64,000 nt of DNA from Candidatus Latescibacterota bacterium (GCA_965203805.1 OZ241917.1:2016001-2080000), one strand, 5' to 3'. Shown: positions 1 to 6,594, counted from the first letter of the stretch. Program-made: numbers and translations. The notes: generated by a model from the letters alone, not told the origin.

Positions 1-46
1 TCCGGCGTAGACCGGGCGTCAGACCTTCCAGGTTCTGAAGGACGAG

Positions 47-75
47 GGAACACTCTCAGTCCGTCATCTGTCTAT
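47..75 (+). promoter_or_regulatory. possible ECF (sigmaE-like) promoter for the Spy/CpxP genes
   Basis: GGAAC at 47-51 and GTCTA at 70-74, upstream of envelope-stress chaperone-like genes. Confidence 0.3.
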
Positions 76-189
76 AGCGTAGAGACCCTCGTAACGGACG
101 GACTGCAGCCGGTCACAGCACGTTCCCGTCACCTGCGGGCAACCGCCCGCTGACACCTGACAGCCGGGGAAACCGAAAGGAGAATCATC

Positions 190-705
190 ATGAAACGCGT
201 CGCCATTCTTGCCGCCGTCGTCATTCCCATCCTTGTCATCGCCTGGGTGTTGCCCACAGATGCACATCGGGGCAAACGGGGCTGGAAAGGCCGAAAGGCG
301 CCGATGGCAGCCCTGGAACTGTCAGCCGAACAGCAGGCCAGGTTGGAAAATCTCAAACTGGCGCGGGCCAAACAGATGGCTCAACTGCGTGCCGACCTGA
401 AGGTGGCCAGACTGGACCTCCGGGCAGCGATGCGGAAAGACGAGCCCGACGCTGCAGCCGTCAAGACGAGTGTTGCAGCCGTAAACAGCGCTCGATCGCT
501 GATTCTGGAGAGCCGCATCAACCACCGGCTCAAGGTCAACAGCGTCCTGACGCCGGAGCAGCGGACCAGGCTTCGTGAAATGCGAAGGGATCGACCCGGG
601 AAGGGATGGGGCAAAATGTGGCGCAAGGGACGCTACCATAAGCGTTTTCGAGGAATGGGAGAAAAACGCCCCGACGGCGCCGACAGCCGCCCGTCTTCTA
701 TCTGA
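190..705 (+). CDS. Spy/CpxP family periplasmic protein
   Basis: Signal peptide; LELSAEQ and VLTPEQR (LTxxQ) motifs; SD AAGGAG upstream. Confidence 0.8.
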   Translation: MKRVAILAAVVIPILVIAWVLPTDAHRGKRGWKGRKAPMAALELSAEQQARLENLKLARAKQMAQLRADLKVARLDLRAAMRKDEPDAAAVKTSVAAVNSARSLILESRINHRLKVNSVLTPEQRTRLREMRRDRPGKGWGKMWRKGRYHKRFRGMGEKRPDGADSRPSSI

Positions 706-736
706 CCGGATCTGCCGGGATAGAAAGGTATTGGAG

Positions 737-1789
737 ATGTTGTTTCGCAGATTTGCCTTCACGTCCGTGGTTTTGTCGTTCACGCTCATCGGCTGCGGAA
801 ACAGAATCCCCGTCGAGTCCCCCACCGGGGACGACTCCAATGAAAGCGCATCCCAGGCCTCAAAGGCGTCAACGGACGAGATCAGCGCCAAACTTGAAAA
901 CGGAAGTTCCGGCAATTCCGGGTTCCGCCACCACGGAGGACGGAGATTATCCATTGACGCGCTTAGGGATTCCCTGGGCCTGAGCGACGAACAGGTTTCA
1001 GCACTCGAGGAGTTGAATGAATCCTACGCCGCGGACGTCAAGGCAGCGATCGAAAGTGCCAAAGCATCCGGCGACCGCACGGGGCTTCGGGCGAAGTTGC
1101 GGGAACTGAGAGAGGAACATGAGGACGATTTCAACGATGTCCTGACGGACGAGCAACAGATCCGTCTCGAGGAGATCAAGGCCAATGCGGCCGCCCGAAG
1201 GAAGGACCGGGGGTGGGAAAATTACATCGCCGCACTCACTGACTCCCTGGGCCTGAGCGACGAACAGGTCGCGGACCTCAATGAATTGCACGAAGACTAT
1301 CAGGCCGACGTCAATGCCGCCAGGGAAAACGCCGGGAAGTCGGGCGACCGTTCAGAGTTCCGCACCCGGCTGAAGGAATTGAGACTGGCATTCGAAGACA
1401 ACTTCAACGACGTCCTGACGGACGAGCAACAGATCCGTCTCGAGGAGATCAAGGCCAATGCGGCCGCCCGAAGGAAGGACCGGGGGTGGGAAAATTACAT
1501 CGCCACGCTCACTGACTCCCTGGGCCTGAGCGACGAACAGGTCGCGGACCTCGATGAATTGCACGAAGACTATCAGGCTGACGTCAAGGCCGCGATCGAC
1601 AGCGCTCAGGAATCGGGTGACCGTTCGGATCTCAGGGAGAAGCTGCAAGAACTGAGAAAGGATTTCGGGGAGGACTTCAACGCCGTCCTTACCGATGAAC
1701 AGAAGGAGAAGCTGGACGAGATGAAATCCGAGGGACGGAAACGTAAGGGCAAGGGACGCCGACACCGCCACAAAGGCAGAAAAGGTTAA
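737..1789 (+). CDS. lipoprotein with three tandem Spy/CpxP-like domains and a basic C-terminal tail
   Basis: Start moved to ATG 737; lipobox LIGC; three LGLSDEQ...VLTDEQ units; tail GRKRKGKGRRHRHKGRKG. Confidence 0.75.
   Translation: MLFRRFAFTSVVLSFTLIGCGNRIPVESPTGDDSNESASQASKASTDEISAKLENGSSGNSGFRHHGGRRLSIDALRDSLGLSDEQVSALEELNESYAADVKAAIESAKASGDRTGLRAKLRELREEHEDDFNDVLTDEQQIRLEEIKANAAARRKDRGWENYIAALTDSLGLSDEQVADLNELHEDYQADVNAARENAGKSGDRSEFRTRLKELRLAFEDNFNDVLTDEQQIRLEEIKANAAARRKDRGWENYIATLTDSLGLSDEQVADLDELHEDYQADVKAAIDSAQESGDRSDLREKLQELRKDFGEDFNAVLTDEQKEKLDEMKSEGRKRKGKGRRHRHKGRKG
1130..1587 (+). repeat. near-identical intragenic direct repeat, period 273 bp (91 aa)
   Basis: 1130-1314 matches 1403-1587 with only a handful of substitutions. 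Confidence 0.9.
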
Positions 1790-1803
1790 AGTTCCGATTC
1801 GCC

Positions 1804-1832
1804 TTGACAACTCGGGTGCGGGTGACTAACTT
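1804..1832 (+). promoter_or_regulatory. sigma70-type promoter of the valS leader
   Basis: TTGACA (1804-1809), 17 bp spacer, TAACTT (1827-1832). Confidence 0.65.
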
Positions 1833-1877
1833 TCTATGAATTCAAACCCTGAGATCTCTATCATTCAGACGAAACCC

Positions 1878-2003
1878 ATGATCACCATCGGCCACAGACC
1901 CCAGAATCTCACGTTGCGGGTCAACGTAAATGTCGGCGTACGCCCGGTAGTAAATGTCAATTCGGGCGATAGTCAGGGGACTCCGTGGCGGTGTTTGAAT
2001 TAG
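1878..2003 (+). CDS. putative Val-rich attenuator leader peptide of valS (41 aa; 55 aa if ATG 1836 is used)
   Basis: MITIGHRPQNLTLRVNVNVGVRPVVNVNSGDSQGTPWRCLN*; 7 Val codons in 13 (1920-1958); followed by a terminator; start codon ambiguous and no clear SD. Confidence 0.75.
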   Translation: MITIGHRPQNLTLRVNVNVGVRPVVNVNSGDSQGTPWRCLN

Positions 2004-2025
2004 CAGCTTGGACAAGAACACCAGC

Positions 2026-2063
2026 AACCCGCCATCGAGTCCACTCGGTGGCGGGTTTTTTTT
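2026..2063 (+). terminator. attenuator terminator upstream of valS
   Basis: AACCCGCCATCGAGT / ACTCGGTGGCGGGTT stem ending in a T8 run. Confidence 0.9.
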
Positions 2064-2085
2064 ATATGAATATCGAGGATTCCTG

Positions 2086-2367
2086 ATGTCGCATCGACCA
2101 CACACATCGCGTTGCCTTTCCAGGCTCCCGGGCTATTCTCCGTACAGCGAACGGTCGGCAGCCACTATTGTCGAAAAACGTTCAGGCGCGATGCTGCGGG
2201 GGATTACGGTCGGCGACCAGTGGGTCGCCGGATTTCAGGTTCCCGGACGGGAAGGAAGCGCTCGATTGTGTGACGGAATTACTACCGAAGTTAGCCTCCG
2301 GGAGGACAGACAGGCCGATATCCTGGCCGCCGCAGATGTACAGCAGGATTGGCCGCGGCAGTTATGA
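2086..2367 (+). other. unassigned 93-aa ORF or decayed gene between the attenuator and valS
   Basis: GAGGA SD 6 nt before ATG 2086; no recognisable family. Confidence 0.25.
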
Positions 2368-2487
2368 TTTGCCGGATGTGGGCCGTTACTTCGAGGTCCT
2401 CGAACTCACCGTCTTCGACGATTGGAGATTCCAGGGTACGGAATTTCCGGATTCGCATAATGGACAATACCTCCCGGGAGAATCAAA

Positions 2488-4932
2488 ATGGCATTATCCA
2501 AACAGTATCGTCCACAGGAAACAGAGCCTCGCCTTCAGGCGCGCTGGCGGCTCGCGAGTATCTACAAATTTGAGAGACAGGCCACGGGCCCTGTGTACGC
2601 AATCGACACCCCGCCTGCGACCGTGTCCGGAAAACTCCACATGGGCCACGTCTATTCCTACAGTCATGCTGATTTCATGGCGCGCTTCTGGAGAATGAAC
2701 GGCCAACGGGTGTTTTATCCTATGGGATATGACGACAACGGTTTACCCACCGAACGGTTGGTGGAAAAACTGTTGGGAATCCGCGCAAACGAAATTGGCC
2801 GCGAGGAATTCATAAATCAATGCTTGCGCGTCAGCTTGGCCACAGAAAGAGAATACGAGAGTCTCTGGATTCGGCTGGGGCTGTCGGTCGACTGGTCGCA
2901 TACCTACCGCACTATCGGTCGCGCCGCCCGGCGAATTGCGCAGAAATCATTCATCGACCTTTTCGAAAAAGGGCTCGCGTATCGTAAGAAAGCGCCTGCG
3001 GTCTGGTGCCCGGAATGCCAGACCGCCATCGCCCAAGCCGAACTGGACGAAGCGGATCGGATGGGCGAATTGGTCACAATAGACTTCCGCCTCGCGGACG
3101 GAAATCCAATACCGATCGCCACAACCCGGCCGGAGCTTCTAGCGGCGTGCGTAGCAATCTTCGTCCATCCCAGTGACGACCGCTACAGTTCGTTTATCGG
3201 CCACGACGTTACCGTACCACTTTATGGACGCGAGGTTTCGATATTGCAGGACAAGGGGGCGGATCCCGAAATGGGTACAGGGGCTGTGATGTGCTGCACC
3301 TTCGGCGACGCCGCTGACGTGGCATGGTGGCATTCTCATCACCTGCCGCTTGTCTCCGTTATCGACGGAAACGGCCGGTTGAACCGTGGATCCGGCGATC
3401 TCAACGGCCTTTCCGTACCAGAAGCCAGGCGACATATCGTAAGGACGCTTGATGATCGCGGTCTGATCCGGGATCGACGGCCCTTTCCACAATCAGTTCG
3501 GATCCACGAACGCTGTGACACGCCAGTGGAATTCATCGTCGCCCCTCAGTGGTTCATTAACATCCTCGACTTCAAGGACCGCTGGCTTAGCGCAGGCGAA
3601 GAAATATCGTGGCATCCCCCGCATTTGAAAACCCGCTACATTGAATGGATCGAAAACCTGCATTGGGACTGGTGCATCTCGCGACAGCGCAACTTTGGCG
3701 TACCGTTTCCGATCTGGTACTGCAAAGCTTGCGGAGACGTCAAAGTTGCCCCCGAACAGAAACTGCCCATAGACCCCCTCCAATCGTCCCCAGATGTGAA
3801 TTGCAATTGCGGCGCCGACGATTGGGTCGCGGAAACAGACGTTATGGATACCTGGGCTACGTCGTCGCTCAGTCCTCAAATCGCCGCTCGGTGGCAATCG
3901 AATAATGAGCTTTATGGTAACGTCTACCCAATGTCCATGCGCCCGCAGTCACATGAGATCATCCGGACGTGGGCCTTCTACACGATTGTCAGATCCCACT
4001 ATCATTGCGGTCGAGTACCTTGGAATGACGTATGCGTATCCGGTTGGGGCCTGGCTCCTGACGGTGCGGGGAAAATCAGCAAGAGCAGAGGCGGTGGACC
4101 GACGGCACCCATGGCCGCAATCAGGAAGTACTCGGCAGACGCAGTTCGATATTGGGCGGCCGGAACGGGTTTTGGAAAAGACACAGTCATTAGCGAAGAA
4201 AGAATCCAGGCCGGCGGCAAACTGATCAACAAGCTCTGGAACGTCGCCCGCTTCAGCGAACGCTTCCTTCAGGGATATCGCGATTCAATTGAACCATCAA
4301 CCCTGACCCCAGCGGACCGCTGGATTCTGGCGCGGGCACAACGCGTAATCAAACAGACAACTTGCTCTTTCCGAAACTACCAGTACGCGCAGGCAAGGCA
4401 TGCAGTCGAAATCTTCTTTTGGCGAGACGTGGCTGACAACTACCTGGAAATGGCCAAACAACGCCTTTATGCAGACGCCGAGGGCGCAGCAAGCGGCGCG
4501 AAATATGCACTATGTCACGTGCTTCGAACCTGCGTTCACCTCTTTGCGCCGTTTCTGCCCCACGTAACCGACGAGATCTACGCCGGGCTATTCGCAAAGC
4601 GTGGAGAATCCATCCACACCTCAACCTGGCCCTCGGTGGATGTGCGACTGGTGGACGATGTCGCGGAGGCGCACGGAAACCGACTGGTTGAGATTGCCAC
4701 TGCCGTTCGCAGATTCAAGAGCGAATCCAACCTCCCGCTCAGTGCGCCCGTGCATCTGTTACAGCTTTCAGTCAAGGATCATGCGCTCTCAATGTCGCTG
4801 AAGGAGGCTGAAGCCGATATGACCAGTATTACACGCGCTGACAAGCTTGACGTCCGGCTGAATCACCCTGTCGACGCCGGCCTTCGAGGCGTGCTCGAGA
4901 GCGATGCTGTATACGCGGCGGTTGACGTCTAA
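2488..4932 (+). CDS. valS: valine--tRNA ligase, archaeal-like (type 2) form
   Basis: IDTPPATVSGKLHMGH (HIGH), ATTRPE, GTGAVMCCTFGD, DWCISRQR, KISKS; lacks the bacterial C-terminal coiled coil. Confidence 0.95.
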   Translation: MALSKQYRPQETEPRLQARWRLASIYKFERQATGPVYAIDTPPATVSGKLHMGHVYSYSHADFMARFWRMNGQRVFYPMGYDDNGLPTERLVEKLLGIRANEIGREEFINQCLRVSLATEREYESLWIRLGLSVDWSHTYRTIGRAARRIAQKSFIDLFEKGLAYRKKAPAVWCPECQTAIAQAELDEADRMGELVTIDFRLADGNPIPIATTRPELLAACVAIFVHPSDDRYSSFIGHDVTVPLYGREVSILQDKGADPEMGTGAVMCCTFGDAADVAWWHSHHLPLVSVIDGNGRLNRGSGDLNGLSVPEARRHIVRTLDDRGLIRDRRPFPQSVRIHERCDTPVEFIVAPQWFINILDFKDRWLSAGEEISWHPPHLKTRYIEWIENLHWDWCISRQRNFGVPFPIWYCKACGDVKVAPEQKLPIDPLQSSPDVNCNCGADDWVAETDVMDTWATSSLSPQIAARWQSNNELYGNVYPMSMRPQSHEIIRTWAFYTIVRSHYHCGRVPWNDVCVSGWGLAPDGAGKISKSRGGGPTAPMAAIRKYSADAVRYWAAGTGFGKDTVISEERIQAGGKLINKLWNVARFSERFLQGYRDSIEPSTLTPADRWILARAQRVIKQTTCSFRNYQYAQARHAVEIFFWRDVADNYLEMAKQRLYADAEGAASGAKYALCHVLRTCVHLFAPFLPHVTDEIYAGLFAKRGESIHTSTWPSVDVRLVDDVAEAHGNRLVEIATAVRRFKSESNLPLSAPVHLLQLSVKDHALSMSLKEAEADMTSITRADKLDVRLNHPVDAGLRGVLESDAVYAAVDV

Positions 4933-5038
4933 CGGGATCCTCAGTCGTCATCTATGGTGTGTGCCGATTTGATCTAAAAACCGTTTAAGTATCAGACCCT
5001 TTGGTGATTTTTACAGAGTGAGCCTGGAGACCTGACCA

Positions 5039-5179
5039 ATGACGACGCGTTGTTCCATCTACCACATCAATACCTCACTGAAGTCACCCGGAACAGCCGT
5101 GTGCCTGGACGTCAATCCCTACAACGATAATAACAACCATAACCCTATCCAACGGCGGGCAGGCCCAAATGGCAGCTAA
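5039..5179 (+). CDS. putative Asn/Asp-rich attenuator leader peptide of aspS (46 aa)
   Basis: SD GGAGA 5026-5030; MTTRCSIYHINTSLKSPGTAVCLDVNPYNDNNNHNPIQRRAGPNGS*; 6 Asn + 2 Asp in 12 codons (5108-5143). Confidence 0.8.
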   Translation: MTTRCSIYHINTSLKSPGTAVCLDVNPYNDNNNHNPIQRRAGPNGS

Positions 5180-5196
5180 ATGTTCACCATGAAGAG

Positions 5197-5232
5197 AACC
5201 CGCCGTGGGTCGCACACCAACGGCGGGTTTTT
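5197..5232 (+). terminator. attenuator terminator upstream of aspS
   Basis: AACCCGCCGT / ACGGCGGGTT stem ending in a T5 run, about 40 nt before the aspS start. Confidence 0.85.
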
Positions 5233-5274
5233 CATGATCGAAAACTCAGACCGTCAAAACAGGAGATTTATCCA

Positions 5275-6594
5275 ATGACCTACGTTTCAATACCCCGGCT
5301 CAGTGATCATGTGGGGCAGATCGTCACACTCTGTGGATGGATACACACCCTTCGAGACCAGAAACAAATGCAATTCATCGTTCTCCGCAATCCCACCGGA
5401 ATGGTCCAGGCCGCCGTTGAGAAACAATCGAATCCCGGCCTGGCAAGAATGGTTTCCACCCTCACACGGGAGTCCGCTGTTCGCCTCACCGGCCGTGTCG
5501 TGCCAAACCCGAACGTCCGCCTTGGCGGCATCGAAATCCACCTGGAGGGGCTCCGCATCGAAAACAGGGCGGAATCGCCTCTGCCGATCGAACCATTTGG
5601 CGAAGTGAGACCTGGATTGGAACGGAGGCTTGACTGGCGGCATCTGGACCTGCGACGCCCAGCGAACCATCTGCTTTTCCAGGTACAGACCACCATCGAA
5701 GCCGCAATGCGAAACTTCTGGCGACGCGAGGGATTCATCGAAATTCATACCCCGAAGATTATGGGCAGCGCAAGTGAATCCGGTGCCGAACTCTTTGAAC
5801 TCCCGTATTTCGACGCCACGGCCTACCTCGCTCAGTCGCCCCAGTTCTACAAGCAGATGGCCATGGCAGCAGGCTTCGAACGAGTCTTTGAAATTGGCCC
5901 CGTTTTCAGGGCGAACCCCTCGTTCACTTCGCGTCACGACACCGAGTTCACCAGCGTAGACGTTGAACTCGCATGGATCGAATCGCACGATGACCTCATG
6001 CACTTTGAAGAACTTTGGCTCTGCCATACTCTGCTCGCCGTGCAGGAATCACACGGCGAAGCAATTTTCAAGCGTTTTGGCACTGAAGTTTGCGTTCCTG
6101 ACCGTCCCTTTCCACGCATCACCATGGAAGACGCTGTCGCACGGCTCGCGGAACTGGGGTACACACCCCCACCACAAAAACAGGGCGACCTTTGCCCACA
6201 GGGAGAGCGCCTGCTTGGCGAATACATCCGGGAAACTTACGGCCACGAGTTCGTTTTCCTGACCGATTATCCTGTTTCCGTCCGCCCTTTTTATCACATG
6301 CGGTACCCTGATAACCCGATCGTCACCAAGAGCTTCGACCTTTTATGGAAAGGCCTGGAACTGACCACAGGCGCGCAACGCGAACACCGACCAGCCGTAC
6401 TGACCGACCAGGCGAAAGAAAAGCGGCTCAAGTTAGAACCCCTACGGTTCTACCTGGACTTTTTCAAATACGGGTGTCCACCACACGGCGGCTTCGGTTT
6501 CGGCCTGACCCGAATGCTCATGATTCTACTTGGATGCAAGAACGTACGGGAAGTCACGTTTGTCTATCGCGGCCCAAAGAGAATCTACCCGTAG
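5275..6594 (+). CDS. aspS: aspartate--tRNA(Asp/Asn) ligase, short archaeal-type, probably non-discriminating
   Basis: OB-fold GWIH..RD, YLAQSPQFYKQM, FRA..S.TSRH.TEF, TTGAQR, YGCPPHGGFGFG; 439 aa, no GAD insertion; SD AGGAG. Confidence 0.9.
   Translation: MTYVSIPRLSDHVGQIVTLCGWIHTLRDQKQMQFIVLRNPTGMVQAAVEKQSNPGLARMVSTLTRESAVRLTGRVVPNPNVRLGGIEIHLEGLRIENRAESPLPIEPFGEVRPGLERRLDWRHLDLRRPANHLLFQVQTTIEAAMRNFWRREGFIEIHTPKIMGSASESGAELFELPYFDATAYLAQSPQFYKQMAMAAGFERVFEIGPVFRANPSFTSRHDTEFTSVDVELAWIESHDDLMHFEELWLCHTLLAVQESHGEAIFKRFGTEVCVPDRPFPRITMEDAVARLAELGYTPPPQKQGDLCPQGERLLGEYIRETYGHEFVFLTDYPVSVRPFYHMRYPDNPIVTKSFDLLWKGLELTTGAQREHRPAVLTDQAKEKRLKLEPLRFYLDFFKYGCPPHGGFGFGLTRMLMILLGCKNVREVTFVYRGPKRIYP

Follow-up and report, generated by a model that had tools for sequence, protein, structure and literature searches.

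How does a bacterium control a second, accessory copy of its valine--tRNA ligase gene? The copy, valS2, lies in a window of 64,000 nucleotides (nt), the whole stretch of DNA analyzed here, from Candidatus Latescibacterota bacterium (GCA_965203805.1 OZ241917.1:2016001-2080000). The genome of this organism (G000) is 5.87 Mb. Coordinates are those of the window unless marked as genome, and other genomes and loci carry G and L numbers. An initial annotation, made from the sequence alone, had placed a valine-sensing leader-peptide attenuator of valS at 1804-2063. The element at these positions (leader 1) is probably a classical ribosome-mediated transcription attenuator of the valS2 operon, as judged from its sequence. 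The support in silico comes from the leader open reading frame (ORF) and from two mutually exclusive helices that are conserved and covary. The geometry also agrees, and in a family of leaders the composition of the leader matches the gene behind it. The accessory operon that it would control consists of a methyltransferase remnant, valS2, a second attenuator (leader 2) and aspS2. Valine is somewhat favored as the main signal over a mixture of Val with Asn/Asp.

The proposed mechanism is as follows. Transcription would begin at a sigma-70-type promoter, and a ribosome would translate the 41-codon leader from ATG 1878. With ample charged tRNA, it would reach the TAG stop codon and cover the core of segment 2, the 5' strand of an antiterminator. 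The terminator would then form, and the transcript would end. A shortage of Val-tRNA(Val), and probably of Asn- or Asp-tRNA as well, would make the ribosome stall in the V/N-rich part of the ORF. There it would open any upstream pairing of segment 2 and leave segment 2 uncovered. Segment 2 would pair with the 5' arm of the terminator, no terminator would form, and RNA polymerase would continue over a spacer of 425 nt into valS2. For aspS2 there would be an attenuator of its own, the Asn/Asp-rich leader 2 (5039-5235) of the same family, which would gate it separately.

Leader 1 begins with the sigma-70-type promoter (Table 1), from which the transcript is predicted to start near 1839. A look for RNA records over 1790-2600 gave 11 entries, all of them contigs of DNA or of unknown kind. 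A consensus promoter scan missed this promoter because the -10 hexamer of G000 agrees with TATAAT at just 3 of 6 positions. In the -10 columns the relatives have TATCTT, TATCTC, TATATT or TTACTT (alignment of nine sequences described below), and TATCTT and TATATT are better hexamers than that of G000. The promoter is followed by a frame that is open at 1836-2003 (55 aa). Codons 1920-1958 read GTC-AAC-GTA-AAT-GTC-GGC-GTA-CGC-CCG-GTA-GTA-AAT-GTC, which is 7 Val of 13, and the peptide contains no Val elsewhere. Behind the stop codon is a strong intrinsic terminator. Its stem has 9 G-C pairs and includes a G-U pair, and it folds alone at -25.8 kcal/mol. The stretch ACTCCGTGGCGG (1980-1991) agrees with the terminator 3' arm ACTCGGTGGCGG (2043-2054) at 11 of 12 positions.

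The initial annotation had reported a promoter ahead of a short ORF, the Val codons, the stop codon, the terminator and this match. The promoter is conserved in the alignment, the terminator is as strong as described, and the statements on codons, stop and match are exact to the nucleotide. The short ORF also exists and is conserved. It begins at ATG 1878 and not at 1836, because the predicted transcript start puts the ATG at 1836 at or before the first nucleotide of the RNA, and the relatives have GTG, TTG or GCG there.

Table 1. Positions of leader 1, the genes of the cassette behind it and leader 2 in the window.
Feature	Position	Strand	Basis
-35 hexamer TTGACA	1804..1809	+	Direct reading; CTTG invariant, TTGACA or a one-off variant at that column in 9/9 aligned sequences
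-10 hexamer TAACTT	1827..1832	+	17 nt past the -35 hexamer
Leader 1 ORF, 41 codons + TAG (2001-2003), MITIGHRPQNLTLRVNVNVGVRPVVNVNSGDSQGTPWRCLN	1878..2003	+	Start, frame and stop kept in 9/9
Putative sensing window V N V N V G V R P V V N V N, 7 Val + 4 Asn codons	1920..1961	+	Codon listing
Candidate segment 1, CGCC inside the invariant GTACGCCC (1938-1945)	1941..1944	+	Pairs with GGCG 1987-1990
Segment 2, antiterminator 5' strand GGGGACTCCGTGGCGG	1976..1991	+	Pairs with 2029-2042
Intrinsic terminator, 14-bp stem 2026-2039/2044-2057, T8 at 2056-2063	2026..2063	+	Scan, fold and 9-sequence pairing
93-codon ORF with GAGGA ribosome-binding site; C-terminal half is a remnant of an S-adenosylmethionine-dependent methyltransferase	2086..2367	+	Similarity to intact relatives
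valS2, accessory valine--tRNA ligase, PRK13208 type, 814 aa	2488..4932	+	NF009687, 1017 bits vs cut-off 738
Leader 2 ORF, 46 codons, MTTRCSIYHINTSLKSPGTAVCLDVNPYNDNNNHNPIQRRAGPNGS, Asn/Asp-rich	5039..5179	+	GGAG ribosome-binding site 5026-5029
Leader 2 antiterminator strand CAACGGCGGGCAGG, encodes Q-R-R-A-G	5150..5163	+	Repeats the terminator 3' arm
Leader 2 terminator and T tract	5197..5234	+	Fold, -23.0 kcal/mol
aspS2, non-discriminating aspartate--tRNA(Asn) ligase, 439 aa	5275..6594	+	NF003483, 474.6 bits vs cut-off 353

A Val run followed by a terminator is rare in this genome. Across all six frames of the 5.87 Mb, 7 or more Val within 13 stop-free codons occur at 99 places. Leader 1 alone among these then has, at most 200 nt downstream, T6 together with a hairpin that folds at -15 kcal/mol or lower. 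The combination is more than chance. The fold of 1960-2068 has a z of -4.65 against shuffled sequences.

Conserved Val-rich upstream ORFs (uORFs) before orthologous valS genes, which the initial annotation had named as a check, were found. The DNA at 1790-2100 is 69-77% identical in 7 of the 60 relatives searched, five from the same genus and two from a sister genus. A more distant ortholog, L097, scores 123.8 bits against the leader model and lies beside a valS2 of 61% identity. Leader 1 is kept in these 8 other genomes, the record titles of which read Candidatus Latescibacterota. The alignment comprises nine sequences (G000, the seven relatives and L097). The start at 1878 is ATG in eight of them and GTG in L097, and all nine ORFs end in the same TAG after 41-43 codons. 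The sole indel in the ORF is 6 nt, occurs in two genomes and is in frame.

Variable columns number 24/43, 23/43 and 18/43 for the three codon positions. There is no third-position excess. The frame is therefore kept, but the peptide is not evolving like a conserved protein. Judged by these substitutions, leader 1 evolves as a leader peptide and not as a functional microprotein under purifying selection. This bears on the possibility that the unit is an independent small gene, encoding a 41-aa protein or a trans-acting small RNA, with valS2 expressed from elsewhere. Such a gene is very unlikely here. It would account for the complete promoter-ORF-terminator unit, for the 425 nt to valS2 and for the persistence of the unit in G015, where valS2 is lost. 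For Sinorhizobium, trans activity of leader peptides and of attenuator RNAs after their release is reported (PMC6614838, PMC7298713). A trans role is compatible with attenuation, however. The codon positions argue that the peptide is not under ordinary purifying selection, and it has no protein family match. In a small gene the conserved copy of the terminator arm would lack a role. The unit also stands, in 10 of 10 cases, directly upstream of valS2-type genes.

The 3' part of leader 1 can form two mutually exclusive helices. In the terminator, 95% of cells are paired over the nine sequences, with 2 compensatory pairs; register-shift controls gave 26-48%. In the antiterminator (the 2:3 helix), which joins segment 2 to the terminator 5' arm, 88% of 126 cells are paired. 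It has one systematic C-C mismatch, which is repaired to G-C in L097. The shared 5' arm of L097 has an A-to-G change (column 251), and this is met by T-to-C in both partners, the terminator 3' arm and segment 2 (columns 267 and 201). Two mutually exclusive helices predict exactly such a change.

The isolated 2:3 hairpin folds at -25.6 kcal/mol. The initial annotation had held that a ribosome stalled on the Val codons frees the strand and that one at the stop codon covers it. Masked folds, in which the footprint size of the ribosome was assumed, agree with this. With the footprint on the Val codons, the nascent RNA to 2042 makes the full 2:3 helix. Moving the footprint to the stop codon leaves only 5 bp of this helix. 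In the full transcript at equilibrium, the terminator always wins. Segment 2 starts 17 nt after the end of the last Val codon, and the stop codon follows it by 10 nt. The sensing window is thus far enough from 1976 that a ribosome stalled there should leave segment 2 uncovered. RNAalifold gave two candidates for an anti-antiterminator. The first is a 1:2 pairing of 4 bp (CGCC/GGCG; consensus pairs 153-156/202-205), kept in 9/9 but invariant. The second is an outer 6-bp helix of CGTTGC 1912-1917 with GCAGCT 2003-2008, also invariant.

The same helices could belong to a cis RNA switch that is not read by ribosomes, such as a riboswitch or a protein- or tRNA-bound leader, with the ORF incidental. 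This is unlikely, and the evidence is as follows. GTACGCCC and TGGCGG are invariant as nucleotides, third codon positions too, and no clear ribosome-binding site precedes 1878. A tRNA-sensing T-box lies just upstream, at the Rfam gathering score, in 4 of the 16 loci scanned for Chloroflexota valS, the nearest relatives. These features would suit a switch. However, a search of window 1-6000 against Rfam found no family, even with E allowed up to 1. The T-box covariance model RF00230 was likewise unmatched in window 1-6000, and the same library did detect the T-boxes before Chloroflexota valS. The start, frame and stop are kept in 9/9, with the indel in frame. Across the family described below, the coding middle tracks the downstream gene and the RNA scaffold is constant, which a ligand- or protein-bound RNA would not show.

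The gene behind the attenuator is a valine--tRNA ligase gene, as the initial annotation had stated. It is an accessory second copy and lies 425 nt past the terminator, behind a methyltransferase remnant. The canonical valS of G000 is at genome 326.8 kb and encodes a 906-aa frame with 33% identity to valS2. Same-genus genomes without the leader contain the canonical valS only, and all five close relatives with the leader contain both valS genes. The nearest relatives of valS2 outside the phylum are Chloroflexota valS genes, with 53-61% identity. For this reason valS2 looks horizontally acquired. After the transfer, it seems to have come under the type of control used by the recipient phylum. 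G000 encodes a bacterial-type aspS and a probable asnS elsewhere.

The product of the 93-codon ORF (P0002) has no family match. The methyltransferase is intact in two sister-genus genomes only, and in these no other gene separates it from the leader. The intact 246-aa protein of G015 matches Methyltransf_25 at 2e-18; an intact copy lies at L014 9479-10219 (minus strand). The other matches of the methyltransferase are to generic class I families only, all far below the cut-offs (CmoA, 37 bits vs 193). The cassette sits between conserved LTXXQ and STAS/antiporter genes, and its content varies. G013 and G011 have no aspS2, and the aspS2 of G007 is split. In G015 just the leader and the methyltransferase remain.

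This variation raises the possibility of a relic, an attenuator that once ruled the methyltransferase-valS2-aspS2 cassette and is now defunct in a genome where the cassette is decaying. All g1 genomes retain no more than a remnant of the methyltransferase, several relatives have a split valS2 or aspS2 or have lost one, and the -10 hexamer of G000 is weaker than those of the relatives. A relic is very improbable all the same. The leader ORF, both helices, valS2 and aspS2 are all intact in G000. An identity of 69-77% over about 270 nt with invariant blocks is above the neutral intergenic expectation at such a distance.

In L097, the genome of which is 8.1 Mb, a transposase-like ORF (326 aa) is inserted between leader 1 and valS2 (L097 1936-2916), so that the attenuator is parted from its gene. 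A thiamine pyrophosphate (TPP) riboswitch stands directly after aspS2 (L097 7299-7389; 66.2 bits vs a gathering score of 54.3).

Related leaders were retrieved with the covariance model of leader 1, which was run on 151 genomes of the phylum and gave matches at E up to 0.01 in 47. Many of the matches are weak or cover the terminator only. At 15 of the 22 loci examined, the enriched leader residues match the downstream gene, as named by NCBIfam or by clear similarity. Tandem V/L-rich leaders precede ilvB (L123, L124 and, more weakly, L131). K/T/N-rich leaders precede asd (L126-L130, L136). T-rich leaders (ETTTPGTTTPVTGT) precede thrS (L140, L143), and N/D-rich leaders precede aspS (L141, L144). 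Tandem V-rich leaders precede valS2-type genes in another family (L138, with VVVV and 13 Val of 34, and L142). Two attenuators of the same specificity stand in tandem before one gene (ilvB, valS2 or aspS) at L123, L124, L138, L142 and L144.

Genes of the valS2 type occur in 9 of the 151 genomes and in G017, and a leader ORF with a terminator lies upstream in 10/10. The leader of G153 is modestly Val-rich (5 Val in 32 residues). Among 30 loci of canonical valS in the phylum, one (G054) has a Val-rich uORF with a T run. That leader is homologous, with the same VVRPV core and 7 Val. A Val-rich frame before the canonical valS of L159 was set aside; it looks like the end of a membrane protein gene. 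A scan for Val-rich uORFs, aimed at valS2 relatives outside the phylum, covered 75 of 80 loci; at the other 5 the sequence ahead of the gene was too short. It gave six uORFs with 5 or more Val in 15 codons, and just one of these (L035, which is the Latescibacterota genome G013) is leader 1.

Within G000, the canonical valS has no leader or terminator upstream. Its thrS, asd, aspS and probable asnS have no obvious cognate-rich leader upstream. The family does not serve every such gene in this genome. A leader ORF, MVPNLCDLPVAVMVDRSASRIGGLPVSVSRWRRGA, with a terminator lies before the acetolactate synthase gene (ilvB) of G000 at genome 2011910-2012043, which is about 4 kb before the window begins. 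It is a weak match of the leader 1 model (14 bits). About 330 nt upstream of asd (genome 993127) are a promoter-like site and a long, structured-looking leader with no cognate-rich uORF. This region may resemble the start of a lysine riboswitch.

Leader 2 is conserved in seven sequences. Pairing holds in 94% of cells for its terminator, where 3 pairs are compensatory, and in 97% for its antiterminator, where 2 are. A three-way compensated pattern links column 168 with columns 188 and 117. Asn, Asp and His are enriched in its putative sensing block, in keeping with aspS2 as the gene behind it. Leaders 1 and 2 are paralogs, since the leader 1 model matches leader 2 of L097 at 53.8 bits.

The leader 2 peptide ends in R-R-A-G-P followed by three codons (one in G049). 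This end is kept in 7/7 with synonymous codons for Ala (GCA/GCC/GCG/GCT), Gly (GGC/GGG/GGA/GGT) and Pro (CCA/CCG). The SecM arrest motif has RAGP as its C-terminal core, and this core can also support arrest in other settings and is under-represented in proteomes (PMC12992588). The terminal RAGP of leader 2 is the same core. Unlike SecM, leader 2 carries it in an amino acid attenuator and not upstream of a secretion gene, its stalling here would be hypothetical, and the R-R part of its motif is forced by the RNA strand CGGCGGG. By analogy, RAGP may park the ribosome on the antiterminator strand, which we offer as a hypothesis only.

These leaders might tentatively be read as a modular attenuator family on one scaffold, in which the codon block is swapped and the Asn/Asp branch combines RAGP arrest with codon sensing. 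The proposed scaffold would have the start M-T-x-I-x-R, the end R-R-R-[A/D]-G-[P], for which the antiterminator strand itself codes, and a shared terminator shape. The swapped middle block would sense Val for valS, Val/Leu for ilvB, Thr for thrS, Lys/Thr for asd and Asn/Asp for aspS. This possibility is doubtful as a whole. The family offers natural codon swaps on one scaffold for probing attenuator specificity, and a link from arrest peptides to attenuation could be tested on the Asn/Asp leaders with their RAGP end.

The leader-peptide attenuator proposed for leader 1 is backed by the conservation of the ORF and the helices, by the dual compensation in L097 and by the codon logic of the family. 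Several observations weigh against it. ATG 1878 has a purine-rich stretch before it but no clear Shine-Dalgarno sequence, whereas GGAG-type sites do precede leader 2, the methyltransferase remnant and aspS2. The covariation is suggestive and not statistically strong, because nearly all of it comes from the single divergent sequence L097. The nascent RNA of G000 without a ribosome already prefers the antiterminator, and termination without translation is therefore not assured. In these folds the untranslated default may be read-through, unlike the trp paradigm. The candidate anti-antiterminator helices are weak and uncertain in the model, at 4 bp and 6 bp with no covariation.

The downstream side raises further points of this kind. 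The distance of 425 nt from the terminator to valS2 includes a pseudogene remnant, and an internal promoter could lie between the two. In G011, G008 and G144 the valS2 gene is broken up into two or three frames, by cassette decay in places or by assembly errors. In 2 of the 9 genomes, the leader stands before an intact methyltransferase with no intact valS2 (none in G015, a fragment in G019). Among the 22 model matches, 7 are without amino acid logic or an identified downstream gene. Those set aside for lack of such logic are L125 (MFS transporter), L133 (mraZ, probably false), L134, L135, L137 (ABC ATPase) and L139. L132 (G045) is also a match of this kind. It has a leader-like ORF with W-W-W and a terminator before a 127-aa gene of no known family, and from its sequence it may be a tryptophan attenuator.

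The valine signal is subject to the same caution. The Val count is 6-7 in the eight close orthologs, 3 in L097 and 5 in G153, and it is not constant. The composition of leader 1 is V7 N6 D1 in G000, V7 N4 D3 in G013 and V3 N5 D4 in L097. Asn and Asp are equally prominent, and specificity for Val alone is uncertain. The valine sensing of the initial annotation is thus supported by the 7 Val codons and qualified by the enrichment of Asn/Asp and by the 3 Val of the most distant ortholog; pure Val specificity is not secure for these two reasons. Leader 1 may sense for the whole valS2-aspS2 operon, as its codons suggest. The mixture of Val with Asn/Asp fits such an operon because it holds a valyl-tRNA synthetase (ValRS) plus an aspartyl-tRNA synthetase (AspRS) that also serves tRNA(Asn). 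It would make sense of the mixture if leader 1 had to open for either synthetase gene.

Leader-peptide attenuation is a textbook mechanism for biosynthetic operons of Proteobacteria. The enterobacterial ilvBN and ilvGMEDA leaders encode Val-rich or mixed branched-chain peptides, and several amino acids are sensed via one attenuator. Leader 1 resembles them in its Val-rich, mixed peptide and in the several amino acids that would act through one attenuator. They differ in that they control biosynthetic operons, whereas the mix of Val and Asn/Asp here suits two synthetase genes in one operon.

Among aminoacyl-tRNA synthetase genes, PMC1262725 gives classical candidate attenuators before Streptomyces leuS and trpS2, with pheST as the gamma-proteobacterial precedent. 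It also gives T-boxes as the control of these genes in Firmicutes (PMC1262725). The initial annotation knew of no described valS leader-peptide attenuator. Our full-text literature search found none, and the survey of synthetase attenuators by Lopatovskaya et al. (2010, Mol Biol 44:128; cited in PMC4833913) may list one. The literature search on attenuators in Latescibacteria found nothing. The logic itself is not new for synthetase genes, because pheST and the predicted trpS2 and leuS are already published.

Leader 1 shares with Escherichia coli pheST (pheM leader) and Streptomyces leuS and trpS2 a cognate-codon leader ORF, an antiterminator/terminator pair and a synthetase gene as the target. 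Unlike these, its target is valS, in an accessory and apparently horizontally acquired copy of an uncultivated phylum. Its leader is also long (41 codons), with the regulatory codons interleaved with Asn/Asp and no pure run. With the valS T-boxes of Firmicutes and Chloroflexota, it shares the proposed signal, a shortage of charged tRNA-Val, and the output, antitermination before valS. It differs from them in the sensor, which here would be a translating ribosome and not a direct tRNA-RNA contact.

Few synthetase genes are known or predicted to have leader-peptide attenuation (pheST, leuS, trpS2). The candidates here are valS and, nearby, aspS, and the relatives would extend the mechanism to thrS, asd and ilvB. 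The locus would be a clean example of a transferred gene that is under the control style of its recipient while the sensed signal is unchanged. The accessory ValRS/AspRS pair would be induced by charging stress. It could serve as a back-up enzyme or give tolerance to a synthetase inhibitor.

The gene upstream of leader 1 is of the LTXXQ type. A terminator of this gene was considered for the hairpin and rejected, as the conserved promoter intervenes and the conserved block begins there. The gene contains three near-identical LTXXQ-type internal repeats at 575-1789 (PF07813, 1.9e-18). The number of repeats varies among the relatives, as seen from multiple tblastn segments.

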